The notes under the pieces are model-generated. The model saw nothing but the letters and a program-made list of their open reading frames with translations, searched no databases and had not been told where the DNA came from. Position numbers and translations under genes: made by a program. A stretch of 64,000 nt of DNA, taken from an uncultured Candidatus Saccharibacteria bacterium (GTDB lineage Bacteria > Patescibacteriota > Minisyncoccia > Phycocordibacterales > UBA12088). The DNA is taken from positions 8,342-72,341 of the forward strand of contig CAYWMQ010000001.1 in assembly GCA_964459635.1 (NCBI GenBank), read 5' to 3'. Below are positions 6,674 to 42,346 of the stretch, in pieces; positions within the stretch are counted from its first letter, which is position 1; each line of letters starts with the position of its first letter.

Positions 6674-6708
6674 AACTCTAAACTCTAAACTCAAAACTCT
6701 AAACTTTG
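6674..6708 (+). repeat. heptanucleotide tandem array (AACTCTA)n, about 5 units
   Basis: aactcta aactcta aactcaa aactcta aactttg, 47 nt upstream of the ABC ATPase ATG. A related array actctaa actctac actatcc lies at 36279-36299 upstream of ATG 36316. Confidence 0.6.
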
Positions 6709-6754: not shown

Positions 6755-7681
6755 ATGGCTGATGCTGCACTTTCACTACGCGACCTGCGCAAGACGTACG
6801 AAAACGGTACGGAGGCGCTGAAGGGTATCACGCTTGCCGTACCGCGCGGTGAGCTCTTTGCATTGCTCGGGCCGAACGGCGCGGGAAAGTCTACGACCAT
6901 AGGCATCATTACCGGGCTCACCAACAAGACAAGCGGCACAGTGGAAGTCTTCGGCACGTCCATCGACGCCGACCACGACAAGGTGAAGTCGTATATCGGG
7001 CTTGTGCCGCAGGAGATGAACTTCAACATCTTTGAGAAGGTCATAGACATCGTATGCACGCAGGGTGGGTACTACGGGCTCCCGCGCAAGCTTGCCGCAG
7101 AACGCGCGGAAAAGTATCTCACCGCGCTTGGTCTCTGGGATAAGCGCAACGACAAGGGGCGCACGCTCTCGGGCGGCATGAAGCGCAGACTCATGATCGC
7201 GCGCGCACTCGTCCATGAGCCGGAGCTTTTGATATTGGATGAGCCGACGGCGGGTGTGGACGTGGAGCTTCGCCGAGGCATGTACGACTTTCTGCGGCGG
7301 CTCATAGCAGAGGGTAAGACCATCATCCTCACCACGCACTACCTGGAGGAAGCGGAAGAGCTCGCGAAGGGGCTCGCTATCATCAACAACGGCACGATAG
7401 TGGCGGAGGGCACGGTAAAGCAGCTCCTTGCAGGTATGGACGCAGCCACGTACGTGCTCGACGTTGCCGGGCCGGTGCGCGCAGACGCTTTGGGTGTGGT
7501 ACGCGCGTATGCACCTCACGTGCGCGACAGCGATACGCTTGAGCTCACTGCGCGTACTGATGCGACACTGGGTCGTGCAGTCGCCCTGCTTGAGCAGGGT
7601 GGCGTGTCGGTAGTGAGCGTGCGACCCAAGGGGAATAGGCTGGAAGAATTATTCGTCAAGTTGACGAATAATTCAAAGTAA
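6755..7681 (+). CDS. ABC transporter ATP-binding protein
   Basis: Walker A GPNGAGKST, ABC signature LSGGMKRRL and Walker B LLILDEPT. It is adjacent to an ABC-2 permease. Confidence 0.9.
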   Translation: MADAALSLRDLRKTYENGTEALKGITLAVPRGELFALLGPNGAGKSTTIGIITGLTNKTSGTVEVFGTSIDADHDKVKSYIGLVPQEMNFNIFEKVIDIVCTQGGYYGLPRKLAAERAEKYLTALGLWDKRNDKGRTLSGGMKRRLMIARALVHEPELLILDEPTAGVDVELRRGMYDFLRRLIAEGKTIILTTHYLEEAEELAKGLAIINNGTIVAEGTVKQLLAGMDAATYVLDVAGPVRADALGVVRAYAPHVRDSDTLELTARTDATLGRAVALLEQGGVSVVSVRPKGNRLEELFVKLTNNSK

Positions 7682-7791
7682 AAAGTCAAAAGTCAAAATG
7701 CAAAAATCCAAGTCAAAATTCAAAAGCTGCGGCACTCGTACCTCTCACTTTTTACTTGCGCTTTTAACTTCTACCTTTTGAATTTTGACTT
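7681..7791 (+). promoter_or_regulatory. AAAAGTC-type heptamer array and a perfect 17-bp inverted repeat between the ABC ATPase and permease genes
   Basis: aaaagtc aaaagtc aaaatgc aaaaatc ... aaaattc at 7681-7728. AAGTCAAAATTCAAAAG (7710-7726) and its exact reverse complement CTTTTGAATTTTGACTT (7775-7791) are separated by 48 nt. The right arm ends 10 nt before the permease ATG 7802 and covers the alternative TTG start 7778. Confidence 0.5.
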
Positions 7792-24415: not shown

Positions 24416-24474
24416 GGTGTGTATGAGTGCGCGTACACACGTGGCACAGTGGTATACTTGAGGTGCATCTTGCT

Positions 24475-27400
24475 ATGGGAGAGCGTGCCTATATAAAGAC
24501 AGAGGATGACCCGCTCGCCGGAAAGACGGTCCTTCAGCCGTACGTGTCTGAAGAAGTTCTGCGCGCCTTGTCCGAAGAGGAACTCTTGAACCAAGCGAAC
24601 GCTGCGCGTGTCGCCCTTGGGATGGCGCCATTGTCCGACACAGCGGACGCTGTACAAGCTGATCCACAGCGGAAAGAAGTGATAATTTTGGCTCTCGAAC
24701 GAAATCTTGCTAAGTTTCACGAAACTCAGCAAGGAGAGAGCGGCGATGCCGAGTTTGCCTATGTATACGACCCGCGCAATGGCAGAGGTGAATGGCTTTC
24801 GCGGGAGCAAGCATTGCGTGCAGGTTTCACTGAGCGTGCTGCTTCTGCGGACGATGCAGACGCGCTACGCGCACGTGCCGGAGAGTTGCTTGAACAGGCA
24901 AATCTCCTGAGATCTTCGCTGGTGGGAAACCAGAGCAAACAAAAGGCGCGTCTCGACGTTGCGATCGTGCGCCTTCAGGGGCTTTTGGAGGAAAGGCCAT
25001 CCGATATTGCTGCGCTTGAAGAAAGAGTGCGTGATCTTGAGGAGGAGGTAAGGCGGCAAGAACAGCCGGGCGAAAACCCAACTTCAGACGTACAAAACAA
25101 GAATCCTGCTATACGCGTGAATGAAAGGGACGTTGCGGCTTCTGAGGAAAAAGCTGCGGTTGAGCGACAGGAAGCAGAGCTTCGGGACCTATCAAAAAGA
25201 TTTGAAAGATTTGAAGTAGGCACGGTGTCCGGTGATCAAAACTATTCCCGCGACTATGACCGTGCAGAACATCTACTATTTGAGCTGGAAAAACGTCTGG
25301 AAGGCTCTTCAGAGCAGGTACGGCAAAGTGAGATTCGCCATTTAGAGCGTTTGATTGTAAAGCTTGAAAGAATGCAAGCATCAGCAAAGGCCGGACCTGG
25401 AGCTCCAGAGCCTGCGCCCACCCCTGCCCAAGAAGCGGATCCACACACTGCAGAACGCGCGCGAGCACGTGTATACGAAGAAGTGGCGATGGAAATACTC
25501 GCGCGACTACCCGAGGGCAACGATTGGGAGAAAGCGAAAAAAAGGTTCTTTACCGACGATTGGGAACGAATTACGCGCGAAGTGGGAAGCGAGAGTACCA
25601 CACCTGATTTGAAAAGGCTTATTGTGGAGTACGATCATTTGCGCGCATATGAATGGAACTTAAAAGAGCCGTCTTCGGGCGCAGCCCACACAGAGGCTGC
25701 GGAGCCTACCCCCGCTCCCACACCAGAAGCGGATCCTCACGCGAGCGAGCGTGCAGAGGCGCAGCAGCTCGAAGAAGAGGCGCAGCAGCTCATCGCTACG
25801 CTACCTACGGGCTACGACGCTGCAGATCTGAGCAAGCAGGGTGCGGAAAAAAGTTGGGAAGCGCTTGTGCGGAAAAGTGGCAGTCAAGCAAAGACTCCCG
25901 ACCTTACGGTGCTGCGTGACGCGCTGGAAGAGCTGCGCAGACTTGTTGCACATACGCCACCCAAGGCTCCGGAAAGCCCACATGCCGGATTCAAGATAGA
26001 AAAGGGCGGGAAGGCCGAGATCACGCGTCTGGAAAACTATGTTGCTCTGCGACTTGCTGAACTTCCGGTTACCACTGACGAAGAGAGGGCGCACCATGAC
26101 GTACTTATTGCTGAGTGGAAACATCTAAAAGAGCAGTATGGCTCACATGCAGCCAAACCGGAGTACGAGCACTTAAAAGACTTCGTACTCGCTCATTTGA
26201 AGCTGGGCGGGGTCACGACAGAAGCTGAGCTTGATGCCGTGCTCGGCGTCGTGTCGGACAAGAGCGCACTTGGCACCGAGACCGAGGCTGAGCGCATTAC
26301 AGCGCTCGCACAGGAGCGGGAAGAGAATCACCTTCGGACGCGCGAGGCATATGGCGCAGAAATTCGCGAGGCGCGAGAGAGGTACCAAGGCTACCGTAAG
26401 GAGCTTCTTGATGCGGAGGAAGCGTATCTTAATGCGGTTACGGCCCACCGGGAAGGCACCAAGTACTTTAAGGGGCTGCGCAACAGGCTCTTGCGCAACA
26501 CTGAGGGTCAGGAGCAGATCGCTAAGCTTGAAAGAGATATGCGAGCTGCGCAGGTGGAGTTTGAGACAAAGCTTAATGAAATGAAAGCTGAGCGCGCCGA
26601 ACGCCTGGGACTCACGCATCGCTTGCTTGAAATGAGCTACCAACGGCGGTTGGGTGGTGAGAACGATCCCGCCGCCCATCCGGAGCGCCGCAAAGCGCAG
26701 CGCGAGGCGAAATTTGCTGCGCTCCACGAAGCTCTGGTGCTGCGCTCTACTTCTACGATGCTGGAGCTTGCGCAGGGAATCGGCGGCAAGGAGGAGCTTG
26801 ATATCGCGGTGGCAAGCCGCGTGGGTGTGAGGAGGGAAGACTTGAGTGAAGGAACGCGGGATGCGTCCGGCGTGCTCACGCCCGAGGCACAGGTACGCGC
26901 CACCGCGCGCAAAGAGCACTGGGCGGAGCTTGAAAAAGCGGTCGGCGAACGCAAGGACCCCTCCCGCCTCGTGCGTACGTACAAGGCGGGGATGCGGTAT
27001 TACCGGAGCATACCAAAAGAAAAGCAGCTTGCCATACGTATGCTGGGTGGTGGTGCTGTAGGTCTCGTGGTGGGCGGTGGCGCAGGGGCGGCCGCGTACA
27101 TGGCGGCGCGCGCAGGCGCAGGCTTCTTCGGAGGTGCACTTATGGCGGGCGCCGTGTCAAAAAAACTTTTTGGAGCTACCGAGCGGCACATAGCTCGCAG
27201 TAAAAAGGGTATATTGGAGAGCGACACCATGACTCTTGCGGATAAACAGCACGAGTACATGGCCATGCGCAGGAGAGAGCGCAACATGAAGCGGGGCGCA
27301 ATGGCCCTCACAGGCGCAGCGGCATTTGCTGCCGGCGCATCCGCAGGACAGGCGGTAAACGAGGTTGCCATGAGCGGCCTTTCGCTTGAGTCCATCGGAC

Positions 27401-30312
27401 GTGGCGTGGTACACGGTGTGCCACGCACGGTTGAAGCGTGGAACAACAACGCGCACCGTGCATGGGATTATGCTACCGGGGAGACACCCGTCGCGCCCGC
27501 GGGAGCTGCCGGAGCCGCACCTGTGGAAGCGCCTCGCAGTGGAGCGACGCAAGCACCCGAGACACCACCCGACAGTGCGCATGTCGAAGTGCCGCCGGCC
27601 GGTGCGCCGCGCGCTCAGGCGGAGATCACGGGCCAAGGTGCATCAGTACAGGAGTTTGAGCGTATTCGAAAGGAAGGGTACGTCATTACGGAGGAACATG
27701 GCGCTCGCGTGTACACGCATCCGGATGGCATGCGCTACCATGTCTTTGGGAATGGGAACATGTACGCAGAGACCCTGAATGAGTCACCCTCTGCAGGGGA
27801 TGGGCACGCGGGTATCTCAAATTCACCAAAGGTCACTCTGGACAATCTGCCACCGGAGTTACGTGAGCATTTGGTGCGGCTCGTGCGTGTGCAAGTCTCA
27901 GAAGCTATTGAGGCGTACGGCGGCGGCATTGGTGCGGAAGAGCAAAAGCTGGTCCTGGAGGAGCTCGCCAAGGACGGTCTTACCGCGGACGATGCCTCGC
28001 GTGAGGCGGTGATGGAAGCACTGGCGCGAGTAAAAAACGGCATAGGAGACCGCCCGCGTACGTTTGAGCCCGGGCCTTCACGCGGCGCTGCGCCTGTCGC
28101 GCCCGATGAGGTACGTCCACTCGGCACGCGTACGGCGGCGGCGCCCGAAGCGCTGCATACGCGCGCCGCAGCGTCCAGCGTGCAAGAGGCATACGGTGTT
28201 GCGGATACAACAGGGAGCCGGAGCCAGCGCATCCTCAATAATTTGGAAAGCATGCGGCACACCTTTGCAGGTACGGGTTTCAAGGAAGGGGTAGCAACCA
28301 CAGCCTCACTTGACTACATTCTTAAGCAGGTCGAGTTACCTAAGAGTTCCATTTTCCCGCGCGCGAGCTTCCGCGGCGCATGGGGTGCGGTGGCGGACTT
28401 CCCGGCCTCACGAATATTCGACAGCCGGCCGGGCGCAGAGCTCCTGCTGCCCAACAGACAATGGGTCGCTATGAACCCGACCACAGAGGCTATGACCCGC
28501 AACTTCTTCGAGCAGGTGGATCATCGTGTGACCGGCGGTCGCCTCTTGCATAATGCCGACTACCTACGCGGCCGCAGTCTGGGCGATGTCATGCATGACT
28601 TCGAGCGCATACAGAAGGGGCAGGTACGCGTTGAGGACGTTCTGCGCCAGCGGATGGGGCGTGGTGCGGCTGTTGCAGCGGAGGCCGACACACGCGTACG
28701 CGACACCATGCCGCACGAACAGCCTGCAGCTGCGCGCGTACCGGAGGTGCAAGAGTCGCGTTCGGGCTTTGTGCCGGGGGAGCGCACGGCGGCGGCGAGC
28801 GCCACACTCTTGCGCAAGCTTGATGCGCTCGCCGGCCCGGATGTCTCGCATGTACGCGTGGCGGACCTTCTCGCACGTGAGCCGCAGACCCTCAGTGAGC
28901 AGGTGGCGCGCCAGTATGTTGTTGGCTTCCAAAACAATGGCATTACTGCAGATCCGAACCTGTCATTCAAGGAGTACCTCACACGTGCGGTTGACGAGTA
29001 TCTCGAACGCGGTTATTCGCCGCAAGAGCTTGAAATAGCAATGGACTGGCTTGAGGAGGAGTACGGCAAGGCATCGGCTCCGCGTTCGCGAGCAAAGTAT
29101 GCCGTGTATGATGCATCTGAGCCGGTGCCTTTCCGGCGCGCGGGTATTGAGGCTCCAGGCACGGTGAGTCCCGAGGCTATGCGTGCGTCAGAAGCGCTCA
29201 CGGGCCGATTGCGTGCGCTCGGTTCCGTAGAGCTCGGGCGCGACTCCGTGAGCGACGTGTACGCGGGCGACAACAGGGTGAGCGAGCTACTTGGCTCGAA
29301 GCCGCGCAGTGCGGGGGACTACGTGGCACAACGCTTCGTGCAGCAGATGAAGGCGCAAGGCTTTGTCGCAGATGAGCGTTTGCCCTTTGAGCAGTACGCG
29401 CGTGAGGTTATTGACCAGTATCTGAAAAAAGGAGGCACGGAGAACAACATTGCAATGCTTACCGGTATGTTCGAAGACGAAGAACTCGTGCAGCGCGCTC
29501 TTGCGCGCTCCGCGAGCGAGTCGTATCACGAAGCGGATGAAGCGCGCGAAGATGTGGCATACACACGCGAGCGCGGGAGTCGTCGCTCAGGTGGGCAAAC
29601 GTCGCGGACGGGCGTGCGTGGTACGTACCACGGCGAGGCGGGTCCGTTAGAGGCGGATGGTCGTTTTAAGGTGGAGTTTCGCTCGCGTAACCCGCAAGCT
29701 CCGGAACTGCGCATCAGGTCGGGAGGACGTTATTATACACAAGCAGTTGAACGTGTTGAGGCATCTGCTCGGGGTAGTACTCAGTACAAAGGCTGGCTTG
29801 AGTACCCTGGGTCTGCGCTCGAACTTATGAATAGGGACGCGTCCTTTGCCAAGCACGTGTACGACGAACTGCGTGAAGCGGGTTGGGAGGGTCGTACGGG
29901 CAACCGATCGTCATGGAAAGTCTACCAGCTGCCCGATGCTGAAACACTGGCGCACACGTCTCCCCGTGAGCTTCTGGTGAGTGCGGAGGTGCAGGAACTG
30001 GAGGGTATGCGGAAGCAGGCACGTTATCTGGAGCACCACGATAGGGATCTGTACGGCAGATCACGCATTAACATGGGTCGCGATGGTAAGCTTCGCGGCA
30101 GCGGCTCGCTCTTTGAAGAGCGCGAGGGGTCGCGCAACAGAGGCCGGATTGACTCGCATGAGCGACAAGCGCGGCGTGAAACAGACGCTCGCAGTAGGCG
30201 GGAGTTTAGCCGCAAGATGGACAAGATACGCCGCGATACTGACAAGTTGCGGAGCGATCGCAAGACGATGCGCGACATACAGCGCATGAAGCAAGATCAG
30301 CGCAGACATTAA
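24475..30312 (+). CDS. large coiled-coil protein with a central glycine-zipper membrane segment and an Arg-rich C-terminus (1945 aa from this start)
   Basis: ATG 24475 with GAGGTG 9 nt upstream and TATACT at 24453-24458; the track's GTG 24427 would lie upstream of that -10. The N-terminal ~850 aa are E/R/K/A-rich coiled-coil. TM segments GGGAVGLVVGGGAGAAAYMAARAGAGFFGGALMAGAV and AMALTGAAAFAAGASAG. Two ~75-aa internal repeats. The C-terminus reads RRETDARSRREFSRKMDKIRRDTDKLRSDRK. Confidence 0.65.
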   Translation: MGERAYIKTEDDPLAGKTVLQPYVSEEVLRALSEEELLNQANAARVALGMAPLSDTADAVQADPQRKEVIILALERNLAKFHETQQGESGDAEFAYVYDPRNGRGEWLSREQALRAGFTERAASADDADALRARAGELLEQANLLRSSLVGNQSKQKARLDVAIVRLQGLLEERPSDIAALEERVRDLEEEVRRQEQPGENPTSDVQNKNPAIRVNERDVAASEEKAAVERQEAELRDLSKRFERFEVGTVSGDQNYSRDYDRAEHLLFELEKRLEGSSEQVRQSEIRHLERLIVKLERMQASAKAGPGAPEPAPTPAQEADPHTAERARARVYEEVAMEILARLPEGNDWEKAKKRFFTDDWERITREVGSESTTPDLKRLIVEYDHLRAYEWNLKEPSSGAAHTEAAEPTPAPTPEADPHASERAEAQQLEEEAQQLIATLPTGYDAADLSKQGAEKSWEALVRKSGSQAKTPDLTVLRDALEELRRLVAHTPPKAPESPHAGFKIEKGGKAEITRLENYVALRLAELPVTTDEERAHHDVLIAEWKHLKEQYGSHAAKPEYEHLKDFVLAHLKLGGVTTEAELDAVLGVVSDKSALGTETEAERITALAQEREENHLRTREAYGAEIREARERYQGYRKELLDAEEAYLNAVTAHREGTKYFKGLRNRLLRNTEGQEQIAKLERDMRAAQVEFETKLNEMKAERAERLGLTHRLLEMSYQRRLGGENDPAAHPERRKAQREAKFAALHEALVLRSTSTMLELAQGIGGKEELDIAVASRVGVRREDLSEGTRDASGVLTPEAQVRATARKEHWAELEKAVGERKDPSRLVRTYKAGMRYYRSIPKEKQLAIRMLGGGAVGLVVGGGAGAAAYMAARAGAGFFGGALMAGAVSKKLFGATERHIARSKKGILESDTMTLADKQHEYMAMRRRERNMKRGAMALTGAAAFAAGASAGQAVNEVAMSGLSLESIGRGVVHGVPRTVEAWNNNAHRAWDYATGETPVAPAGAAGAAPVEAPRSGATQAPETPPDSAHVEVPPAGAPRAQAEITGQGASVQEFERIRKEGYVITEEHGARVYTHPDGMRYHVFGNGNMYAETLNESPSAGDGHAGISNSPKVTLDNLPPELREHLVRLVRVQVSEAIEAYGGGIGAEEQKLVLEELAKDGLTADDASREAVMEALARVKNGIGDRPRTFEPGPSRGAAPVAPDEVRPLGTRTAAAPEALHTRAAASSVQEAYGVADTTGSRSQRILNNLESMRHTFAGTGFKEGVATTASLDYILKQVELPKSSIFPRASFRGAWGAVADFPASRIFDSRPGAELLLPNRQWVAMNPTTEAMTRNFFEQVDHRVTGGRLLHNADYLRGRSLGDVMHDFERIQKGQVRVEDVLRQRMGRGAAVAAEADTRVRDTMPHEQPAAARVPEVQESRSGFVPGERTAAASATLLRKLDALAGPDVSHVRVADLLAREPQTLSEQVARQYVVGFQNNGITADPNLSFKEYLTRAVDEYLERGYSPQELEIAMDWLEEEYGKASAPRSRAKYAVYDASEPVPFRRAGIEAPGTVSPEAMRASEALTGRLRALGSVELGRDSVSDVYAGDNRVSELLGSKPRSAGDYVAQRFVQQMKAQGFVADERLPFEQYAREVIDQYLKKGGTENNIAMLTGMFEDEELVQRALARSASESYHEADEAREDVAYTRERGSRRSGGQTSRTGVRGTYHGEAGPLEADGRFKVEFRSRNPQAPELRIRSGGRYYTQAVERVEASARGSTQYKGWLEYPGSALELMNRDASFAKHVYDELREAGWEGRTGNRSSWKVYQLPDAETLAHTSPRELLVSAEVQELEGMRKQARYLEHHDRDLYGRSRINMGRDGKLRGSGSLFEEREGSRNRGRIDSHERQARRETDARSRREFSRKMDKIRRDTDKLRSDRKTMRDIQRMKQDQRRH

Positions 30313-30911: not shown

Positions 30912-32315
30912 ATGAACATCACCACACCCCCCAGCACACGCGCGCTTGAGTCGGGCGTATACACGAGCGTCTCCTTTGTGGAAGACTCGAACATGCATGA
31001 GCTCGTACGCACCGATACAGGTGTCTACCGCATGGAAATGGGCATAAAGGACAGTATGCCCATGACCGCACGCCGCTTTCGCTTGCTCGTGCGTACGCTT
31101 GTACAGCACGCCAAAGGCGACAAGCGCAAGAGACTGGCCGTGTCGCTCGATGAGCTCTTGCGTATAGCGCCCCCCGACATGAGCAGGCTTGAACTTCTGC
31201 GTGCTTTTGCAGAAAATGCACACCTTGCAAACTATGCGTTCGTTGCGTTCAAGGAAAAACCAAAAGAAGGATGGCCTTTTATGGATGAAATAGCGCTTGC
31301 GGGGGCACTTACGGCAGAGGACAAGGCGGTGCTTCGCATAGGGGAGCTCGTGGCGCGCGAAGTAAATGCCGCACGCGACCTGGCGAACACGCCGGGCGGC
31401 GACATGACGCCGGGCATCCTGGCCAAGCGTATTCAAGCGTCCGCGCGTGGGACCGAGGCAACGGTCAAAGTACTTGGGCGCGTACAAATGGAAAAGCTGG
31501 GCATGGGCGCTATTCTTGGCGTAGCGAAGGGTTCAAAGGAAGAGCCAAAGTTCATCATCGTAGAGTACAAGGGCGCAAAAAAGAAGCAGCCAACGGTGCT
31601 TGTGGGAAAGGGTATCACTTTTGACACAGGCGGTCTCAACTTGAAGCCGGGTAACGCCATTTCGGACATGCATCTCGATATGTCCGGCGGCGCGGCGGTC
31701 GCGCACGCGGTCATAGCGGCGGCGCGCCTCAAGCTCCCTGTACATGCCGTGGCGCTCATACCAGCAGCCGAAAATATGCCGTCGGGGGAGAGCTACCGCC
31801 CGGGTGACATACTGCGCTCACTTTCGGGGAAGACCATTGAAGTGTTTGATACGGATGCCGAAGGCCGCATCGTGCTTGCGGACGCGCTCACCTACGCTGC
31901 GCGATATAAGCCTGAGCTCGTGGTCGACGTGGCAACGCTCACGGGAGCGGCTATGGTGGCGCTTGGAACGAAGGCGTCAGCACTTTTTTCGGCAGATGAC
32001 GCGCTCCGTGCGCGCATGCTTGCGCTCGCGGAGTTAAGCGGTGATTATTGCTGGCCACTCCCCATGTGGGAAGAATATAAAGAGCGCGTCAAGGGTAGAT
32101 TCGGCGATGTGGCCAACCTTCCGGAGTCCAACTACCGCTACGGCGGTTCGACCGATGGGGCCATGTTTCTTGCGGAATTTGCGCAGGGCTACCCCTGGGT
32201 CCACATAGACATGGCCCCGCGCATGACGAGCGACAAGAGCGACCAGCTCTCGCCGGGAGCCACCGGCGAGCCTGTGCGGATGTTGGTGCGTTTGCTTGAG
32301 AGCGTCTCCCGCTAG
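30912..32315 (+). CDS. pepA: leucyl aminopeptidase (peptidase M17)
   Basis: M17 signature NTDAEGRL present as FDTDAEGRIVLADALTYA. Lys/Asp metal ligands at VGKGITFDTGG. Start taken at ATG 30912; the track's TTG 30831 extension lies inside the hairpin element. Confidence 0.85.
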   Translation: MNITTPPSTRALESGVYTSVSFVEDSNMHELVRTDTGVYRMEMGIKDSMPMTARRFRLLVRTLVQHAKGDKRKRLAVSLDELLRIAPPDMSRLELLRAFAENAHLANYAFVAFKEKPKEGWPFMDEIALAGALTAEDKAVLRIGELVAREVNAARDLANTPGGDMTPGILAKRIQASARGTEATVKVLGRVQMEKLGMGAILGVAKGSKEEPKFIIVEYKGAKKKQPTVLVGKGITFDTGGLNLKPGNAISDMHLDMSGGAAVAHAVIAAARLKLPVHAVALIPAAENMPSGESYRPGDILRSLSGKTIEVFDTDAEGRIVLADALTYAARYKPELVVDVATLTGAAMVALGTKASALFSADDALRARMLALAELSGDYCWPLPMWEEYKERVKGRFGDVANLPESNYRYGGSTDGAMFLAEFAQGYPWVHIDMAPRMTSDKSDQLSPGATGEPVRMLVRLLESVSR

Positions 32316-32412
32316 TGCGCGTCAATTTGGCGCGCGTACACAGGGTATGGTCTGCTCGCGCTATCCACGGTCTCCGCTAACGTTGCGCTTGTACTTGGGG
32401 TACACTGAAGCT

Positions 32413-33699
32413 ATGCGAGTGGCATTCGCGCGCTTTTTTCCGTACGTCTACGCGGCGTGTATTGTCGTGCTGGCTGCCGCGCCGCTCGTGTGGGCATATG
32501 CACAGGAAGCTTTCGATACCACGGAGCCTGAGCGTCCACCGGCCGCTATAGAAAGCTCGGCGTCATTTGCGGTGACGCCCGTGGTGTCCAACGAGAAAGC
32601 AAAAGCGCGCGACATCATCAAGAAAGAGCTTTTGCTCGAAAATAAGAGTGCCGAGCGCATAGGGCTGCGCGCCAAAGTGGAAAACGTAGACCCTGGCGGC
32701 GGCGCGGTGTCGTTCGTATCGCCGGGTGAAGCGGATCTGGCTCATTCGCTCGCGAACTGGGTGGAAATAACACGCGGCGTCGTAGAGCTTGAGCCCGGTG
32801 AGAGTCGCAAAGTGCCGTACCTCATACATGTGAACGTTGTGGCGGAGCCGGGGACCTACTATGCGCGCATCGCATTTACGGACGGCTCACCTGAGTATGA
32901 GACTGACAAACGACCTGATGGAACCAGCCTTCTTTTGACGGTAGAGGTGGCTGATGACGCACGCGAGCGCCTGCAGCTGGCCGGTTTTGTTGCGTCCCGG
33001 TCGCTTGTGTTCGGCGCCGACGCGGCGTTCACGTACCGCCTTGAAAATGTGGGCAACAGAGACCTGGAGCCGCGCGGCACTATCCGCATATTCAACAGAC
33101 GCGGCGAGGAGGTCGGGTCTGTGCCGCTCAACGCGGACGGCGTGTCGCTCTCGCCCGCGAGCAAGCAGCAGCTCGCCACGGCATGGAACGCGAGCGGCCG
33201 TTTCGGCAAGTACAAGGCATTTTTGGACCTGGAGTATGGCACGGAGCAGCTCGCGAGTGTGCAGGACACCGTCTACTTTTGGGTGTTCCCATGGAAAGAA
33301 ATTCTCGCGTCCATGTTCGGCGTGCTCGTGCTTGCGGTGGTGGGCACCTATGTCATCCACATGCGCACCATGGCGCGGCCGGCGCATGTGTATGCGCCCG
33401 TGTATCCCGAAGCACAGTCTCGCATGTCACCTAAGTCCGTTCTGATGCCGAGCGGTGCTCGCAGCCACGGCGATTTCGCAGATCAGCCTGTGGCTTCTGC
33501 GGCGCCGGTGCGCGCTACGGCTCAGGCTGCACCTGCTCGCGTCGTAGCTCAGCCTATGCCGGCGGCTCCTCCCGCGGTTGTCCTGGCGCGCAAGGAAGCG
33601 GCATCGCCCGGCCCGGTGGTCTCGCTCGCGCCTCGCAGTCGAGGTGGCTCTCATGTAGATGCTCAAGCTCACACCGTTCAACTCAAACCCCGCCGGTAG
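32413..33699 (+). CDS. membrane-anchored surface protein, paralog 1 of 3
   Basis: ATG 32413 gives the signal peptide MRVAFARFFPYVYAACIVVLAAAPLVWAYAQE. A ~300-aa beta-rich ectodomain carries the motif EPGTYYARIAF. A C-terminal TM helix ILASMFGVLVLAVVGTYVIHM is followed by a Pro/Ala-rich cytoplasmic tail. The architecture is reminiscent of DUF916/DUF3324 cell-surface proteins; this is inference only. Confidence 0.55.
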   Translation: MRVAFARFFPYVYAACIVVLAAAPLVWAYAQEAFDTTEPERPPAAIESSASFAVTPVVSNEKAKARDIIKKELLLENKSAERIGLRAKVENVDPGGGAVSFVSPGEADLAHSLANWVEITRGVVELEPGESRKVPYLIHVNVVAEPGTYYARIAFTDGSPEYETDKRPDGTSLLLTVEVADDARERLQLAGFVASRSLVFGADAAFTYRLENVGNRDLEPRGTIRIFNRRGEEVGSVPLNADGVSLSPASKQQLATAWNASGRFGKYKAFLDLEYGTEQLASVQDTVYFWVFPWKEILASMFGVLVLAVVGTYVIHMRTMARPAHVYAPVYPEAQSRMSPKSVLMPSGARSHGDFADQPVASAAPVRATAQAAPARVVAQPMPAAPPAVVLARKEAASPGPVVSLAPRSRGGSHVDAQAHTVQLKPRR

Positions 33700-35092
33700 G
33701 GTGGCGCTACAAAGTGCCTCGCGTGCACCCACAACAGGGGCGCGGTTTTTCTTGCTTCTTATACTTTCTACTTTCTACTTCCTACTTGCTACTTTCTACC
33801 TTCTACTTTCTACTCCCGTCTTTGCCCAAGACGCCCTCACGCTCACCATCACACCGCCCTTGATACAGGTGAACTTGGATCCCGGGCAAACATGGACGAG
33901 CAGCATTCGAGTAGTGAACGGCAACCGCTACGAGGTTACGGTATACGCAGACCCCGTGCCGTTTACGGCAGAAGGTGAGGGTGGCCGCCCGCGCATAGTC
34001 TTGTCGACCAAAGCAGCGGACAATGCCACGGCAAACGGCGTAGCGGCGTGGCTGGACGTGCCGCAGGAACCTATCATCATCGGCCCCGAGCAGACGCACG
34101 AGGTACCGTTCACCATACGCGTGCCGGCAGACGCGCCGCCGGGCGGACATTATGCCGCGGTCCTGATAGGCAACAAGCCGGGTGCGGGCGCGGCGGAAGG
34201 CGGCACGGTCACGGTCTCAAGCTCTATTGCGTCATTGCTCCTGCTCACCGTTTCCGGCAATATCGACGAGCGCGGGCGTATACGCGACTTTGTGACGGAG
34301 CGGCATCTCTACGATAAGCCTGAGGCGCGCTTTTCGCTGCGCTTTGAGAACCAAGGCAATGTGCACATCCAGCCGCAGGGGGATATAGTCATTTACAACC
34401 ACTTCGGTAAAGAGCGCGGGAGAGTCACCCTTGGCCAAGGGGGCAACTTCGGCAATGTGCTTCCCGGAAGTATCCGTCAGTTCAGCTTCGAATGGATCGC
34501 GGACGCGGGAGGCTGGGATATCGGCCGGTACCGCGCAGAGGCAACGTTTGCATATGGTAAAGACAGCAAACGGTTCGCCAGTGCGACAACATACTTCTGG
34601 GTGCTTCCACTTGGGCGTATCGCGCTGCTTGCAGGCGGCTTGGCGCTGTTCATATGGTTTATCGGGTGGAGCTTGCGGCTTTACGTACGCCGAGCGTTGG
34701 CTCTGGAAGCACAGCGTATCGCTAGCACCGATCCTCCGCTTCAAGCCCGTGCGGCAGTGCGCCCCGCGGAGCCCGTTCAGGAGCATGTGGCACCACAGAT
34801 CGTTTCACCACGTACGTACTTGCGGCCTATCGAGCGAGGTATCGTCGATCTGCGCGCCCTCGCGCGTCCCGTTGATTCCGAATCCGGTCCGCAAGCGGGG
34901 CATGTGCTCGTCAGCCGTTTGCACCGCACGCGCGCGTTTCTACGCAGGTACCGTGTCTTTTTCATCTTCCTTGCCGTCGTAGGGGCAGCGCTTCTGATGG
35001 GGCGGACCTTGCTGCGCGATGTGCTCACGTACGAGCGCGCATACGAAGTGGAGGTGCTGGATCCGGAAGCACCGAAGTCAGACGCACCGTAA
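33659..35092 (+). CDS. membrane-anchored surface protein, paralog 2 of 3
   Basis: Phe/Leu-rich signal peptide ...FFLLLILSTFYFLLATFYLLLSTPVFA-QD. The real start is possibly TTG 33752. Motif PPGGHYAAVLI. C-terminal TM LLAGGLALFIWFIGWSL followed by YVRRAL. Its 5' end overlaps the tail of paralog 1 in another frame. Confidence 0.55.
   Translation: MLKLTPFNSNPAGRVALQSASRAPTTGARFFLLLILSTFYFLLATFYLLLSTPVFAQDALTLTITPPLIQVNLDPGQTWTSSIRVVNGNRYEVTVYADPVPFTAEGEGGRPRIVLSTKAADNATANGVAAWLDVPQEPIIIGPEQTHEVPFTIRVPADAPPGGHYAAVLIGNKPGAGAAEGGTVTVSSSIASLLLLTVSGNIDERGRIRDFVTERHLYDKPEARFSLRFENQGNVHIQPQGDIVIYNHFGKERGRVTLGQGGNFGNVLPGSIRQFSFEWIADAGGWDIGRYRAEATFAYGKDSKRFASATTYFWVLPLGRIALLAGGLALFIWFIGWSLRLYVRRALALEAQRIASTDPPLQARAAVRPAEPVQEHVAPQIVSPRTYLRPIERGIVDLRALARPVDSESGPQAGHVLVSRLHRTRAFLRRYRVFFIFLAVVGAALLMGRTLLRDVLTYERAYEVEVLDPEAPKSDAP
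33762..33817 (+). repeat. heptanucleotide tandem repeat (TACTTTC)n, 8 units (4 perfect), inside the signal-peptide coding region of paralog 2
   Basis: tactttc tactttc tacttcc tacttgc tactttc taccttc tactttc tactccc. The unit is 7 nt, so it is not a multiple of 3. Confidence 0.75.
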
Positions 35093-36200
35093 CACGTGCG
35101 TAGCACGTGTTGTGCAAGAGTGCTCCATCCTTTGGGGACGTTGTGGCGTAGACGGCATTGTGCGATGCAGGGGTGATCTCGCGCGGGCAGTGTCACTCGC
35201 TCGCGTACCGCTTCAAGCACAGGGCCTGGGCATAAAAGTGCAGCCGTCAACCATTGAAGAGCGTCTTGATCCGGGCGGCTCGGTGGAGGGTGTGCTCACT
35301 ATCACCAACGAGAGCGATGCTCCACAGGTCTACAAGATAGGTACGCGCGACGTAACAGGCATGGAGCTCTCCGGCAGACCGAACTTTTCGGATAAACCGG
35401 GCGGTGAAGACCCGTATGCTGCGTCTGCGTGGGTACGCCCGCAGAAAGACAGCGTTCCTCTTGCGGCATGGGAGGCGGTAGAGGTGCCGTACCGTATTGA
35501 GGTACCGACTGACGCGAGTCCCGGCGGGTACTTTGCGGCTATCTTCGTGACGCGCGAGGCAGATGGTATTGCCGAGTCGGGAGCGAGTGTTGGCTTTCAC
35601 GTGGCGGCGCTCGTAAACCTACGCGTCAACGGCGAGGTGCGTGAGGACTTGGTGCTGAAGGAGTTTAGTACCGGGCGCGCTGTACATACCGACCTCGAGG
35701 TGGAATTTACCGCTCGCATGGAAAACACCGGCACCGTACATGAGCGGCCCGTGGGTATCATTACCATTGCGGACATGTTCGGCAAAGAAGCGGGGAAGGT
35801 GATGCTTAACGAAAACGAGGGGGCGATACTGCCACGTTCCGAGCGTCTATTTGATACTACGTGGAAGGGAGAGGGCTTCCACGTGGGCCGGTACACGGCA
35901 CTTCTCAGCGTGACATATGGGAATGACGCGAAGCAAACGGTCACACGTTCGACTACGTTTTGGATTGTACCGCTCCGGGACACGGCAGCCTTTGCGGGAG
36001 CTATTGTAGTGGCACTTGCGCTCATCTTGCTTGGTATGCGGGCCTATGTACGCCGGCAGCTTCGCCGTGCGGGCTACGATGCACAGACCGTACGTATCCG
36101 TGAGCAGAGCTCTTTTGCGGCAAAGCTTAGTCGTGTGCTTGTCTGGCTCGCGGCCCTACTCGCACTCATGGTCGTTGCAGTGGTGGTGTTCTTCGCGTAG
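35019..36200 (+). CDS. membrane-anchored surface protein, paralog 3 of 3 (start uncertain)
   Basis: Shares the motif SPGGYFAAIFV and the C-terminal TM AFAGAIVVALALILLGM followed by YVRRQL, plus a second C-terminal TM. No convincing signal peptide lies upstream of the conserved ...PLQAQG position. The track start overlaps paralog 2 by 73 nt. Confidence 0.45.
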   Translation: MCSRTSAHTKWRCWIRKHRSQTHRNTCVARVVQECSILWGRCGVDGIVRCRGDLARAVSLARVPLQAQGLGIKVQPSTIEERLDPGGSVEGVLTITNESDAPQVYKIGTRDVTGMELSGRPNFSDKPGGEDPYAASAWVRPQKDSVPLAAWEAVEVPYRIEVPTDASPGGYFAAIFVTREADGIAESGASVGFHVAALVNLRVNGEVREDLVLKEFSTGRAVHTDLEVEFTARMENTGTVHERPVGIITIADMFGKEAGKVMLNENEGAILPRSERLFDTTWKGEGFHVGRYTALLSVTYGNDAKQTVTRSTTFWIVPLRDTAAFAGAIVVALALILLGMRAYVRRQLRRAGYDAQTVRIREQSSFAAKLSRVLVWLAALLALMVVAVVVFFA

Positions 36201-36675: not shown

Positions 36676-36833
36676 AAACGAAAGGCACCTGCCGATAGCA
36701 GGAAAGTTAAAAGTGCATTACACGCGTTAACGTCGGCGGTCGTCTAACTGGACCTACACGGTCTAAGGCATTTTGGTGGCGTGAAGTCATGGCAAACCGT
36801 CTATGGCTTTCACTCCCGTGTGCTGTTACGTAG

Positions 36834-36861
36834 CGTGTTACGTAGCATGCTACGTAACACG
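36834..36861. promoter_or_regulatory. perfect 28-bp palindrome CGTGTTACGTAGCATGCTACGTAACACG
   Basis: Self-complementary across 28 nt. It has a flanking direct repeat GTTACGTAG (36825-36833 and 36837-36845) and lies in a ~500-bp region with no credible ORF. Confidence 0.5.
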
Positions 36862-37049: not shown

Positions 37050-37094
37050 CCTGCCTGCCGGCAGGCAGGTACATTTTAACTTTTGACTTTTGTT
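37050..37094 (+). terminator. perfect 20-bp GC palindrome CCTGCCTGCCGGCAGGCAGG followed by T-rich heptamers (ttttaac ttttgac ttttgtt)
   Basis: Terminator-like: a GC hairpin followed by TACATTTTAACTTTTGACTTTTGTT. It could end an unannotated transcript from 36676-37050, or act as an operator upstream of the FGE gene. Confidence 0.4.
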
Positions 37095-37178
37095 ACCCTC
37101 CCCCTCCAGGTGGATAAGCTGTTCATGGTGTAGCTCCACTCGCGGTACAATATAGGTACGGATCATATCCGCCCCCGA

Positions 37179-38039: not shown

Positions 38040-38124
38040 GTCACATATGGAAGAACGAGAAAGTCCACCCCCTGTAATAGAGGAGCATGCGCAGCGAGAC
38101 GCATCGACCTTGTGTGTACGTAAG

Positions 38125-40020
38125 ATGGCAGGCCGTCACTTTTCGTTGCGCTTAGGCAGTCGACAGCCTTTTTTGTCTTTTGTCTTTTGTCTTTTGTATC
38201 TCGTGCTCCTGTTCTCTTTTCTCTATACGTCGCACTCGGCATTTGCCACAAGCTATCTCTCTCGCATTTCAGACCTTATCTCCACCAGTGCGCCGGGCGC
38301 GGCTGCGAACCACACGCTTCGTTTCACTATAGCTCAAGCGATACCGCCCAACGGTGCCATTGAAGTGCTTTTCAACCGCGGGGGTTTCACTATCCCCGGG
38401 GCACTTAATTTTACCGATGTGGACCTTGGTTTTTCGGCAGTATCCGGGGGCCCCTATACCGAGCGTCCGCTATCTTCCGTGCAGACGGGCGGTACGGACC
38501 GGGTGGTGGTCACAAGCGGTAGCGCGGGCAAGATACGGTTCGACCTCAACACGTCGGTAGGTATTGCGGCAGGCAGCGAGTTGCGCATCAAGATAGGCAC
38601 GAACGCCACGTTCGGTACGGTGGGTGATCAGCGCATTCTGCTCCCTACGGCCACCACATCTCACCCGGTGACTGTGTACACATACGATGCGGCTGATGCC
38701 GAGCTTGACTACGGCGAAACGCGTATAGCGGTAGTGGAGCAAGTGACAGCGGGCCCGGTAGATACCGATGACGTCACGCCGCCCGTGGTGCTTGCGGCAT
38801 ACCCTTCCGGGCTGCTTCAAGTGGGAACGAGGGCTGTACAGATGTGGGTAGTTACCGATGAGCTTACGGCGTGCAGATGGGCGACCTCAAGTATGGCGTA
38901 CGCAAGCATGCCGTACTCTTTCACCTCCACAAGCACATTCGGGCTTGCGTACTGGAATTTTGCCACATACGGCGGACTTGAAGATGATACTGAGTACAAT
39001 GCGTACATCCGCTGCGTTGACTTTCGTTCTAACGAAATAGATCCCGATTACATCCTTTCCTTTACCGTAGGTATTACGCCCGGTAGTGCAAGCTCAACAG
39101 CCACCACGACCGGCACAGGTACCGGCACAGGTACGGGCACATCGACCGGCACATCGACCGGCACCGGTACCGGCACCGGTACCGGAGGAGGACCGTCGGG
39201 TTCCGGCTCGGGCAATGGCCCCAATGGCGGCGATGGGGCAGGGTCGGGCGGGGGTGGGTCCGGGCAGTCGGGCTCCGGTGACAAGCTGCCCCAGGCGGAT
39301 GTGCAGGTGTCGGGATGGGCGTACCCGGGCTCTACGGTAACACTGCTTCGCGACGGGGCGATAGTGGCTACGCAGGCCGCGGGAGGCGGCGGCGAGTTCC
39401 TGCACCTTACGGAAGGTATCGACCGCGGCATATACTCCTTTGCCGTGTATGCGACCGACTCAAAGGGAACACGTAGTGCGACATACGCCACTACGCTCGG
39501 CCTGCGTTCGAATACGCTCAACAAGCTTGCGAACATTATGCTCCCGCCCACCGTCTCGGTCGTGGCCGCTTCCGTAGACCCGGGTAAGCCTGTCGAGGTG
39601 AGCGGTTACTCCGCGCCAAGTGCCAAAGTCACCGCATGGCTGCGGCCCAGGCTTGCGGTGGTATCGGCGGCGGACGTGGTGGCGAGTACCACCGCGCTCG
39701 CGAACGGCATATACACGCTCAGCATTCCGACCACGGGGCTCACACAGGGTACGTACGAGCTCGTTGCGCAAGCTGCTCATGCGAACGGCACCGTGCAGAG
39801 CGACAAGAGCGCGCGGCTTGCCGTAGGACTTGGCGTTCAAGTGACACAAAACACGGGCTGCAAAGACGGCGACCTCAACTGCGACGGCTCAGTGAACCTC
39901 ATAGACTTTTCGATCCTTCTTTTCAACTGGAACACCGCGAGCACCGTTGCAGACATAAACAAAGACGGGACCGTCTCGCTGCCGGACTTCTCGATACTGC
40001 TCTTCAATTGGACGGGGTAG
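38125..40020 (+). CDS. secreted surface protein with a Thr/Gly-rich linker and a C-terminal type-I dockerin
   Basis: ATG 38125 gives MAGRHFSLRLGSRQPFLSFVFCLLYLVLLFSFLYTSHSAFA. Beta-rich domains, then the linker TTGTGTGTGTGTSTGTSTGTGTGTGTGGGPSGSGSGNGPNGGDGAGSGGGGSG, then more Ig-like domains. The final 55 aa, DLNCDGSVNLIDFSILLFNWN and DINKDGTVSLPDFSILLFNWTG, form two dockerin calcium-binding repeats. Confidence 0.7.
   Translation: MAGRHFSLRLGSRQPFLSFVFCLLYLVLLFSFLYTSHSAFATSYLSRISDLISTSAPGAAANHTLRFTIAQAIPPNGAIEVLFNRGGFTIPGALNFTDVDLGFSAVSGGPYTERPLSSVQTGGTDRVVVTSGSAGKIRFDLNTSVGIAAGSELRIKIGTNATFGTVGDQRILLPTATTSHPVTVYTYDAADAELDYGETRIAVVEQVTAGPVDTDDVTPPVVLAAYPSGLLQVGTRAVQMWVVTDELTACRWATSSMAYASMPYSFTSTSTFGLAYWNFATYGGLEDDTEYNAYIRCVDFRSNEIDPDYILSFTVGITPGSASSTATTTGTGTGTGTGTSTGTSTGTGTGTGTGGGPSGSGSGNGPNGGDGAGSGGGGSGQSGSGDKLPQADVQVSGWAYPGSTVTLLRDGAIVATQAAGGGGEFLHLTEGIDRGIYSFAVYATDSKGTRSATYATTLGLRSNTLNKLANIMLPPTVSVVAASVDPGKPVEVSGYSAPSAKVTAWLRPRLAVVSAADVVASTTALANGIYTLSIPTTGLTQGTYELVAQAAHANGTVQSDKSARLAVGLGVQVTQNTGCKDGDLNCDGSVNLIDFSILLFNWNTASTVADINKDGTVSLPDFSILLFNWTG
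38168..38197 (+). repeat. heptanucleotide tandem repeat (CTTTTGT)3 plus a variant unit, inside the signal-peptide coding region of the dockerin protein
   Basis: cttttttgt cttttgt cttttgt cttttgt; rotated, this is (TTTTGTC)n, matching the intergenic TTTTGAC arrays. Covers codons 15-25 of the gene. Confidence 0.75.
39109..39192 (+). repeat. 12-nt tandem repeat (ACCGGCACAGGT-like, 7 units) encoding the TGTG linker
   Basis: accggcacaggt x2, acgggcacatcg, accggcacatcg, accggcaccggt x2, accggaggagga. In-frame microsatellite. Confidence 0.7.
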
Positions 40021-40287: not shown

Positions 40288-40794
40288 ATGGCTACATTCA
40301 TGGATAAGCTCAAAGGCCGCGGCCTTACCGAAAAGGGCGGAAGTCTCTCCGCCGGCAGTGCCGCCGATCATGCGGGTACTCCCGCGATGGGCCACCAAGA
40401 GGTGGTCCCGAGCCGCGCACTCCAGCTTCCCGTAGACGTGTTCCAATCGGACGACGAGATCATCATATACGCACAGCTTGCCGGTATGGACATGCATACG
40501 CTCGACGTTTCCATAGCGGGAGATAATGACGTGGTGGCCATCCAAGGCACAAGCTTGCGCCCCGAGCATCTCATGCATGATGCGCATGCGGGCAGAAATG
40601 GGGACTATACGCTCGAAGAGTGCCACTGGGGTGATTTTTACCGCCAGATCATCTTGCCCGATGAAATTGATCCGGAGCGTGCGGAAGCCAAAACGAAAGA
40701 CGGCGTGCTTGCGCTACGTCTGCCGCTGGCAGGCAAGGCTGTCAAAGGCCGCAAACTGAACATCGTGCGTGCGGATGAACAGCCGCAGCAATAG
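40288..40794 (+). CDS. Hsp20/alpha-crystallin family small heat-shock protein
   Basis: Alpha-crystallin domain from VDVFQSDDEIIIYAQLAGMDMHTLDVSIAGDNDVVAIQGT to GDFYRQIILPDEIDPERAEAKTKDGVLALRLP. TATACT lies upstream at about 40220. Confidence 0.8.
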   Translation: MATFMDKLKGRGLTEKGGSLSAGSAADHAGTPAMGHQEVVPSRALQLPVDVFQSDDEIIIYAQLAGMDMHTLDVSIAGDNDVVAIQGTSLRPEHLMHDAHAGRNGDYTLEECHWGDFYRQIILPDEIDPERAEAKTKDGVLALRLPLAGKAVKGRKLNIVRADEQPQQ

Positions 40795-40810
40795 CGCACG
40801 AGCTCGCGCT

Positions 40811-42346
40811 ATGCTCGCGTCGAATATACACCGTGTTGTTCATAAAAATGCCGTAGCGCAGGCGTATACCCGCGTCAAAGTTTTTGTGGCGCTTGTTTTT
40901 TTTCCGTTTTTCTTGTTTCTTGTTTCTTGTTTCTTGTTTTCTACCTCCGCCCACGCCGCCTCCTACTCCTTTTCGCCCGCGTCCGGCTCCTACGAGGTCG
41001 GCAAAACGTTCACCGTGTCCGTCATGGTGGACCCGGGCACCGATGCGGTGAACACGGGCGATGGAGCGCTCTCGTATGACACCGCCAAGCTCACCGCAGT
41101 GTCGGTGTCCAAAGAGGGTTCCGTTTTCAATCTTTGGGTGACCGAGCCCGCGCTTAACGCGGGAGCGGGCACGGTGACTTTTGCGGGTGGTGCCACCACG
41201 CCCTTTTCAGGCTCTAAGCGAGTCGTCACGGTTAGCTTCAAAGCGAAGGCGGAGGGCGCCGCCACGGTAAAACTTGATAAGGGTACGCTGCTGGCAGGCG
41301 CCGGTCAGAACGTGCTTGCCGGATCCCTGCCCACCGCTTCTTTCACCATCACTCCCGCTGCCGCCAAGCCGCCGGTGGAGGAAAAGCCGGACACCCCTGC
41401 ACCCGCAAAGCCGGCACGTGCGGTGAATATCCCCGTACCTGATGCTCCTGTTATCAAGAGTTCCACGCACAAAGAAGAGGGCACCTGGTACAACCAGAAC
41501 ACCGTGAAGCTCACGTGGGACCTACCCTACGGTGTGACCGGGCTCAAGAAGCTGTGGAGCGAGAAAGCCGACGCAGAGCCCACCGAAGTGCATGAGCCGC
41601 CCATACCCGACTGGACAAAGGAGAACGTGGCCGACGGTGTGTGGTATTTCCATGCCGCGTATAAGAACAGGGGCGGATGGGGAAGCTCCACCGCGTTCAA
41701 GGTGCAGATAGATACTACGCCACCGAAAGAGTTTACCGTGACGGGCACCGGAGGAGACCTTGCCGCGCAGCTTTCATGGGCTGCTGAGGATGAACTCTCC
41801 GGTGTGGTCGTATACCGCATAGCCGTAGACGACGGCCGGCCGCGGGATGTACAGCCCTCCGAGCTTATAGCCGGCGGATATACGCTCACCAACATAGATC
41901 CTGGCGAGCATAGCATTATCGTGACGGCTGTCGATGCTGCGGGCAACGAGCGGGAAGCTCGCACTAAGGTCACCGCGACAGGTGAGCTCCCTCCCGCAGA
42001 AGGAGCGCAGGAAGTTGAAACATCCGGCTTCGGAGCCATCTACTGGGTATCACTCATCTTCATGGCGCTTCTTGCAGGTGCGGTAACGCTCCTTGTGCTG
42101 GAGCGGCGCAAGCATCATGAGGAGCGCGAGCTCATCAAGCGTGAGGCGATGGAGGCGGGCGACAAGCTCATCAACGTATTCGGCGTGCTGCGCGACGAGA
42201 TAGAAGAGCGCGTGCTTGACCTCTCGCACAAGCCCAACATGACCGACAACGAGCGCGAGATATTGGAAGGCCTTAAAGATGCCCTGGATGTATCCGAAGA
42301 GCTTATCGACAAGGAGATAGAAGACATTCGCAAGCTCCTCAAGTAG
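40811..42346 (+). CDS. membrane-anchored protein with an N-terminal cohesin-like domain, Pro-rich linker, FN3/Ig-like domains, a C-terminal TM and a cytoplasmic coiled-coil tail
   Basis: ATG 40811 gives the signal peptide MLASNIHRVVHKNAVAQAYTRVKVFVALVFFPFFLFLVSCFLFSTSAHA. Cohesin-like beta-sandwich pattern SGSYEVGKTFTVSVMVDPGTDAVNTGDGALSYDTAKLTAVSV...GTVTFAGG...VVTVSFKAKAEGAATVKL. Pro-rich linker EEKPDTPAPAKP. TM AIYWVSLIFMALLAGAVTLLVL. The cohesin assignment comes from pattern recognition only. Confidence 0.55.
   Translation: MLASNIHRVVHKNAVAQAYTRVKVFVALVFFPFFLFLVSCFLFSTSAHAASYSFSPASGSYEVGKTFTVSVMVDPGTDAVNTGDGALSYDTAKLTAVSVSKEGSVFNLWVTEPALNAGAGTVTFAGGATTPFSGSKRVVTVSFKAKAEGAATVKLDKGTLLAGAGQNVLAGSLPTASFTITPAAAKPPVEEKPDTPAPAKPARAVNIPVPDAPVIKSSTHKEEGTWYNQNTVKLTWDLPYGVTGLKKLWSEKADAEPTEVHEPPIPDWTKENVADGVWYFHAAYKNRGGWGSSTAFKVQIDTTPPKEFTVTGTGGDLAAQLSWAAEDELSGVVVYRIAVDDGRPRDVQPSELIAGGYTLTNIDPGEHSIIVTAVDAAGNEREARTKVTATGELPPAEGAQEVETSGFGAIYWVSLIFMALLAGAVTLLVLERRKHHEERELIKREAMEAGDKLINVFGVLRDEIEERVLDLSHKPNMTDNEREILEGLKDALDVSEELIDKEIEDIRKLLK
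40912..40939 (+). repeat. perfect heptanucleotide tandem repeat (CTTGTTT)4, inside the signal-peptide coding region of the cohesin-like protein
   Basis: cttgttt x4 at 40912-40939, with one more unit at 40893-40899. Covers codons about 34-43. Confidence 0.8.

Follow-up and report, generated by a model that had tools for sequence, protein, structure and literature searches.

Through slipped-strand mispairing in a pentameric CTCTT coding repeat of their leader-peptide region, the Neisseria opa genes switch at ~1e-3 per generation (PMC3960869). In Haemophilus influenzae, heptanucleotide simple sequence repeats (SSRs) that are documented or proposed to be phase variable comprise 6-38 units, examples being the TGAAAGA tracts of the hmw1A and hmw2A promoters and the AACAACC and AATTTTG tracts within open reading frames (ORFs) (PMC2651432). 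In Helicobacter pylori, a 5' CT dinucleotide repeat sets the in-frame or out-of-frame status of the outer-membrane protein gene oipA (PMC10564699). Here, we describe a perfect (CTTGTTT)4 array in the signal-peptide coding region of a cohesin-domain membrane protein gene, within a 64,000-nt stretch of contig CAYWMQ010000001.1 (the whole of which we call the window). The mechanism class concerned, SSR translational phase variation, is already well known; our literature search found no report of it in the Candidate Phyla Radiation (CPR)/Patescibacteria, nor any paper devoted to the cohesin-dockerin proteins of this group. These bacteria, with their tiny genomes and small number of regulators, are believed to grow attached to host cells, and to our knowledge few means of surface variation are documented in them beyond diversity-generating retroelements.

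The array resembles the opa repeats in being pyrimidine-rich, in having a unit that is not a multiple of 3 and in lying in the 5' leader-peptide coding region of a surface protein. In both systems the frame shifts with unit number (for the window cohesin gene in modelled alleles only, for Opa as ON/OFF switching), and multiple genes per genome each carry their own tract, with the Opa genes switching independently. The two differ in unit length (7 nt versus 5 nt), in the organism (an environmental CPR bacterium versus a host-restricted pathogen) and in the proteins, the cohesin and dockerin proteins being unrelated to Opa. Furthermore, the window has about four units and only ON alleles, seen in sequence alone, whereas opa tracts are well above that length and opa switching has a measured rate. 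With H. influenzae the locus shares the heptanucleotide unit and the association with surface adhesin or receptor genes, and the in-ORF examples of that species also frameshift the gene; in contrast, the H. influenzae tracts vary visibly between strains, compared with four units identical in two strains here, and most of them lie in promoters rather than signal peptides. The oipA CT repeat is located in the signal-peptide coding region. The likeness is that of an SSR in the 5' region of a surface protein gene governing its frame, and the differences are the dinucleotide unit, the proteins themselves and the fact that oipA switching is experimentally established.

The heptamer array of the cohesin gene

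Direct inspection of the sequence shows four CTTGTTT units without mismatch at 40912-40939 (+), and Tandem Repeats Finder (TRF) extends the array to 40909-40939 (period 7, 4.4 copies, 100% matches, score 62, register TTTCTTG), a perfect tract of 31 nt. A fifth CTTGTTT occurs at 40892-40898, 13 nt upstream, so the four perfect units and the isolated fifth that had been reported in a preliminary description are both confirmed. Segmented into sevens, the degenerate upstream part of the array (40892-40911, +) consists of this isolated unit followed by TTTTTCCGTTTTT, the spacer being a degenerate pair of units that is one base short and that includes a T8 run. This homopolymer (40896-40903), which lies 8 nt 5' of the array and like it falls in the signal-peptide coding region, could be another point of slippage; it occurs without change in L029, a second strain recovered in another study.

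The G+C content of the array is 29%, compared with 58.7% for the window. Upon shuffling the window 100 times, with composition kept within 60-nt blocks, the best period-7 TRF score was 39 and none reached 50, whereas the real window contains five period-7 arrays with scores of 54-85. An exhaustive scan for perfect repeats returned two perfect heptamer arrays in the window, 40912-40939 and 38171-38197; the third coding array, at 33762-33814, has only 89% matches. The same four-unit sequence is present in the contig of the metagenome-assembled genome (MAG), in the Logan contig L029 and at the ends of Logan contigs L001-L011. These observations bear on the explanation that the array is a collapsed or stuttered repeat introduced by sequencing or assembly, in favour of which short-read k=31 contigs break at the array. 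However, the four units recur in the MAG contig, at both broken Logan ends and in a contig that another study assembled from a different strain without a break, and the frame is intact only at this array length. We consider an artefact extremely improbable, and it is effectively refuted by the independent assemblies.

The gene (40811-42346, +) encodes a cohesin-domain membrane protein of 511 amino acids, as assigned from Pfam PF00963, alignment and translation, with a layout of signal peptide, cohesin domain, Ig-like region, C-terminal transmembrane (TM) helix and conserved charged cytoplasmic tail. The Pfam Cohesin family matches residues 62-167 (E=5.3e-8; score 33.6 bits, curated threshold 24.1) and is precomputed for most of the orthologs, and a PDB sequence search with the protein gave no match. 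The predicted signal peptide, the cohesin domain and the C-terminal TM anchor, together with a partner gene that carries a dockerin, identify it as a surface or envelope protein. The ATG at 40811 is both the gene-caller start on an independent contig and the position of the ortholog starts, and with this start the array, which is identical in strain L029, encodes FLFLVSCFLF at codons 34-43, near the 5' end of the 511-codon ORF and within the signal peptide, as had been stated before. Signal peptides were judged by inspection and from ortholog N-termini. That of the cohesin protein (residues 1-49; 40811-40957, +) has Sec-type features, namely a charged n-region, MLASNIHRVVHKNAVAQAYTRVK, ending in YTRVK, a hydrophobic h-region, VFVALVFFPFFLFLVSCFLFSTS, and a small-x-small cleavage site, AHA|AS, and the cleavage junction A-x-A|A-S/T-Y(-S) is conserved in 119 homologs. 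The array encodes the hydrophobic core of this predicted signal peptide. An exact-protein look-up returned no record for the full cohesin protein or for the paralog at 35019, because contigs break at the array, and none for the homolog P0019. Programmed ribosomal frameshifting at the T-rich stretch was considered and set aside, since the downstream sequence offers no out-of-frame ORF to express and conservation is lacking.

A small hairpin lies at the cohesin start codon (40792-40813 in the window), directly after the HSP20 stop. In the clade of the window (window, L030, L044 and L037) it has the form TAGCGC-N7-8-GCGCTA, whose TAG doubles as the HSP20 stop and whose 3' arm enters the ATG, and in 13 other orthologs (including L015 at 572-603, L027, L020 and L047) it has the form (C)CTCGCTC-N8-15-ATGAGCGAG, pairing the G of the ATG and codons 2-3. 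Among these 13, the 6-bp core is mostly kept, the four innermost pairs are intact in all, and compensatory changes occur at two pairs. The hairpin may control cohesin translation or may be the HSP20 terminator. RNAalifold gave no consensus on the start-codon hairpins, the two hairpin types having been mixed in its input.

Reading frame, ancestry and companion arrays

We modelled in silico the consequences of a change in unit number. The cohesin allele with four units encodes 511 amino acids, whereas alleles with three and five units encode 77 and 91, and those with one and seven encode 504 and 518; in the dockerin gene described below, a change of one unit in either direction yields truncated products of 92-107 amino acids and a change of three units stays in frame. 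In the modelling, a single-unit change therefore frameshifts both genes. Since 7 and 3 have no common factor, one frame passes through all unit phases, and thus a coding heptamer array must be stop-free in three frames. The T-rich CTTGTTT unit is stop-free and, whichever frame is read, specifies hydrophobic residues (CTT GTT TCT TGT TTC TTG TTT = LVSCFLF). All three coding units found in the window are stop-free, and the intergenic units TTTTGAC, TTTTAAC and AACTCTA contain stops.

Three envelope genes with 5' heptamer arrays in their signal peptides lie within 7.2 kb, so that the cohesin gene does stand as the third such gene in 8 kb. The perfect (TTTTGTC)x3.9 array at 38171-38197 (+), detected by both TRF and the perfect-repeat scan, falls in the signal peptide (LSFVFCLL) of a dockerin-bearing secreted protein (38047-40020, +) with a C-terminal Dockerin_1 domain at residues 619-662; the called start is 38047, and judging from ortholog N-termini the internal ATG at 38125 (MAGRHF...) is more likely to be the true one. 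The imperfect (TACTTTC)x7.6 array at 33762-33814 (+) falls in the signal peptide (LILSTFYFLLATFYLLLST) of a secreted or membrane protein without known family (33659-35092, +), the middle one of three tandem paralogs. It is 29-33% identical to the flanking paralogs at 32296-33699 and 35019-36200, both of which are without an array. The original assignment of the three products as a cohesin protein, a dockerin protein and a surface paralog holds. The unit TACTTTC is a cyclic permutation of TTTCTAC, the unit of the cohesin orthologs in related species. In the other secreted proteins that the window encodes, the h-regions are of the ordinary kind, rich in A/L/V/G.

The genome is a Paceibacteria/Parcubacteria (CPR) MAG, in which the window forms part of a 98-kb NCBI contig, and the homologs and related loci come from Parcubacteria/Paceibacterota/Kaiserbacteria MAGs. 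Most cohesin orthologs have ordinary signal peptides and no array at the site, and the closest relatives, orthologs of 65-69% amino acid identity, carry heptamer arrays at the same site as the window. In L044 (69%) the array reads TTTCTAC CTTCTAC CTTCTAC TTTCTAC, that is (YTTCTAC)x4, and L030 (68%) has a degenerate TTTCTAC array. Additionally, L021 carries a degenerate CTCTTTT array of 13.6 units, and the protein P0019 reads LSTFYSLLLSTFF. Upon right-anchoring on the cleavage-site codons, the window reads (TTTCTTG)x4 T TTTCTAC C|TCCGCCCACGCCGCC and L044 reads (YTTCTAC)x4 C|ACCGCCTACGCTGCC. The TTTCTAC at 40938-40944 (+) abuts the conserved cleavage-site codons and, from comparison with L044 and L030, appears to be a remnant of the unit of the related species. 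Because the anchored alignment places related arrays at the same site in these relatives, the site is old, and TTTCTAC is likely to be the ancestral unit. The terminal TTTCTAC beside four identical TTTCTTG units implies a recent expansion of a mutated unit; the array looks like a slippage-homogenised derivative of an older one, in which the window lineage amplified the mutated unit to four identical copies. We read the aligned sequences as direct evidence that slippage acts on this locus over evolutionary time, and for ecological time scales we infer slippage. A screen of homolog N-termini for lag-7 peptide periodicity gave no hits and was too insensitive.

The reading that we favour, with confidence that is evenly balanced, is that the array is an ON/OFF element that is driven by slippage, able to shift the frame, probably slow and independent from gene to gene. 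Slipped-strand mispairing would create the simple-sequence coding repeat and keep it homogeneous, and the array would occupy the only segment of a secreted protein in which it is tolerated, with the hydrophobic residues of the heptamer serving as the h-region. Since 7 is not a multiple of 3, gain or loss of one or two units would shift the frame just before the cleavage site and lead to a dead-end peptide of 77-91 amino acids, the OFF state, whereas changes of three units (n = 1, 4, 7) would keep the frame and only resize the h-region, leaving the gene ON. The dockerin gene and one surface paralog would carry independent arrays of the same design, and switching would be per gene and combinatorial. 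Each of the three arrays has its own unit and its own gene, and their slippage would therefore be independent; the coordinated switching of the three genes that had been proposed finds no support, since nothing links their states. With only about four units, we expect switching to be infrequent, far under the ~1e-3 per generation of Opa, which would make this a contingency locus that is weak or incipient and not a rapid switch.

Unit number in populations

Two strains of the window species were compared, the window itself and L029 (SRR14126295, from another study), which differs from the window at 59/2719 positions (2.2% divergence). A comparison of unit counts across population genomes had been suggested as a check; L029 has exactly four units, the same number as the window. 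Clustering of the three array-bearing proteins at 90% identity gave identical sequences and one variant with two amino acid differences, with no length variants. An allele-specific scan of Joint Genome Institute (JGI) metagenome contigs (flank, N{20,50}, flank; 2-6 units) gave 0 hits, and the species is therefore absent there.

The sequence in the SRR136170xx series of the Sequence Read Archive (SRA) matches the window at 100% identity, yet contigs assembled there at k=31 invariably terminate at the array. On the upstream side the contig ends at 40938 in at least 20 samples, and among ten downstream contigs examined nine start at 40910 and one at 40912. In a de Bruijn graph simulation, this pattern arises only if the periodic 31-mer at 40909-40939 has two predecessors and two successors; a pure four-unit population gives no break, and a three-unit allele gives a break elsewhere. 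It follows that an array of at least five units, or another locus sharing the 31-mer, is present among the reads. The break is the one positive hint of array-length heterogeneity, and an indirect one. A peptide search with (LVSCFLF)n for a second locus or longer alleles found only short spurious ORFs over unrelated (CTTGTTT)n arrays, its sole Logan match being a eukaryote-like contig of an unrelated sample. As a practical caution, repeats of period 7 break up k=31 assemblies within genes for surface proteins.

Several observations weigh against an element that switches. In L029 the array and its flanks are identical, with four units in the ON state and a contig that runs through the array unbroken. 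No OFF allele was found in the window species (two strains) or in any ortholog examined, all of which are in frame. At 4.4 and 3.9 units, the two perfect arrays fall below the 6-38 units of phase-variable heptanucleotide tracts in H. influenzae, and hence short of a hypermutable length, and substitutions interrupt, and so stabilise, the longest coding array, at 33762-33814. The observed contig break could also come from an unrelated (CTTGTTT)n locus of the same community, and arrays of this kind exist in other metagenomes. Finally, A/T-rich heptamer arrays also lie between genes in this lineage, and a general mutational tendency could explain the arrays with no need of a switch. The number of about four units, the equal count in two strains, the presence of ON alleles only and the interruption of the longest array argue for low mutability. 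The interpretation put forward in the preliminary description thus stands in part: the capability to frameshift and slippage over evolution hold, but stochastic ON/OFF switching was not observed, as no OFF allele was encountered and the second strain has the same four units, and the third array is degenerate. Two candidate OFF alleles with short N-termini, P0021 and P0040, were rejected, as an upstream ATG is in frame and the gene caller had chosen a later start.

The same observations bring forward an explanation in which the array has no switching role and is a tolerated by-product, the A/T-rich heptamer slippage of the lineage surviving in coding DNA only at h-regions, which are indifferent to sequence, while about four units are effectively stable and frameshifted variants are removed by selection. 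We regard this as possible, although we lean away from it. It agrees with heptamer arrays also being intergenic, beside promoters and hairpins that resemble terminators, in the window as in related genomes, with the unit number being the same in a strain of 2.2% divergence, with the lack of an OFF allele among the alleles and orthologs examined, with the decay of the longest coding array by point mutation, and with the array being dispensable, since most orthologs have ordinary signal peptides. However, it leaves unexplained why coding DNA has only the frame-breaking period 7 and not 6 or 9. Moreover, two of the three coding arrays are perfect, implying recent slippage, all three array genes encode surface proteins of one locus, and the k=31 graph break in at least 20 samples fits co-occurring longer alleles.

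A wider proposal is that heptanucleotide signal-peptide repeats in Paceibacteria (CPR) are true contingency loci that switch the parts of a cohesin-dockerin surface complex stochastically and independently, thereby diversifying clonal episymbiont populations in their attachment to hosts or their recognition by phages and predators, with lineage-specific heptamer slippage also supplying hydrophobic segments for new signal peptides; we consider this speculative and rather unlikely. If the arrays do slip, the cohesin-dockerin surface complexes of Paceibacteria would be under bet-hedging control as in Neisseria, Haemophilus and Helicobacter. If they do not, they would still exemplify slippage-prone T-rich repeats that supply and remodel signal-peptide cores.

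Intergenic arrays and neighbouring features

Intergenic A/T-rich heptamer arrays (AAAGTCA/TGACTTT, TTTTAAC, AGTTGAA/TTCAACT and others) adjoin G+C-rich terminator-like hairpins, at 7675-7726 with 7770-7790, at 37050-37095 and at 6674-6705 in the window, and in relatives at L016 6262-6377, L040 4358-4463 and 7264-7370, L017 69-147 and L030 8310-8340. They often form inverted pairs that give rise to long imperfect palindromes, and the window has a perfect 17-bp inverted repeat. Such arrays look like a lineage-wide feature; they point to a general mutational tendency and could yield arrays without selected function. At 6674-6705, AACTCTA x4.6 lies 5' of an ABC transporter ATPase gene (6755-7681), and L030 has a perfect CACTCCT x3.7 at 2378-2403; both are just upstream of extended -10-like motifs (TGCTACACT and TGCTATACT), where unit number could alter promoter geometry.

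The recurrence of the units TTTTGAC, TTTTAAC, TTTCAAA and TTCAACT in the non-coding flanks of hairpins, sometimes as inverted pairs, would suit a different explanation, namely that the T-rich heptamer periodicity functions first of all as a signal in the DNA or RNA, such as a protein-binding array, a transcription pause or termination site or a leader element, with the coding output secondary. It would also suit the dockerin ortholog of L030, in which a T-rich heptamer-like stretch is upstream of the start and not inside the ORF. We nevertheless judge this explanation improbable, given that coding and intergenic units have no common consensus, that neither the three genes nor the orthologs agree in their coding units, that most orthologs have no array at the site, and that an Rfam scan of the window was empty. 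Additionally, we know of no candidate protein that binds heptamer arrays. Rfam and tRNA scans found no RNA genes in the window.

The T-rich stretch of L030 (5420-5470; TTTTCGC TTCTCGC TTTTAAT TTTTCGC) is immediately 5' of the GTG start of the dockerin ortholog and contains a stop codon; the T-rich repeat at the dockerin gene is thus outside the ORF in L030 and inside it in the window. A length difference of 13 amino acids between the dockerin orthologs of L030 and L033 proved to be an artefact of start choice, the DNA being identical. Searching homologs of the dockerin protein for another strain gave nothing above 69% identity, and the orthologs had ordinary short signal peptides. Within the dockerin gene, an in-frame 12-nt repeat at 39109-39185 (ACCGGCACAGGT x6.4) encodes a Thr/Gly/Ser linker (TGTGTGTGTSTGTS...). 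Among the tandem paralogs, the third (35019-36200) has no convincing hydrophobic N-terminus in frame (…GDLARAVSLARVPLQAQ|GLG), and HMMER, run exhaustively with the STFYFLL-type h-region of ORF 33659 as query, returned satellite-like spurious ORFs only.

A perfect palindrome of 28 nt is located at 36829-36856 (CGTGTTACGTAGCATGCTACGTAACACG), where TRF called a 12-nt repeat and inside which the k=31 Logan contig L001 begins. The cohesin and dockerin genes belong to a conserved Paceibacteria cluster, at 37179-62726 in the window and also present in L030, L031, L044, L046 and L047, with the order FGE-sulfatase-like protein, dockerin protein, HSP20, cohesin membrane protein, small protein and a giant DUF2341-containing protein (~5700-6500 amino acids). 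Two further giant ORFs, of 3357 and 1961 amino acids, lie within 14342-30312.

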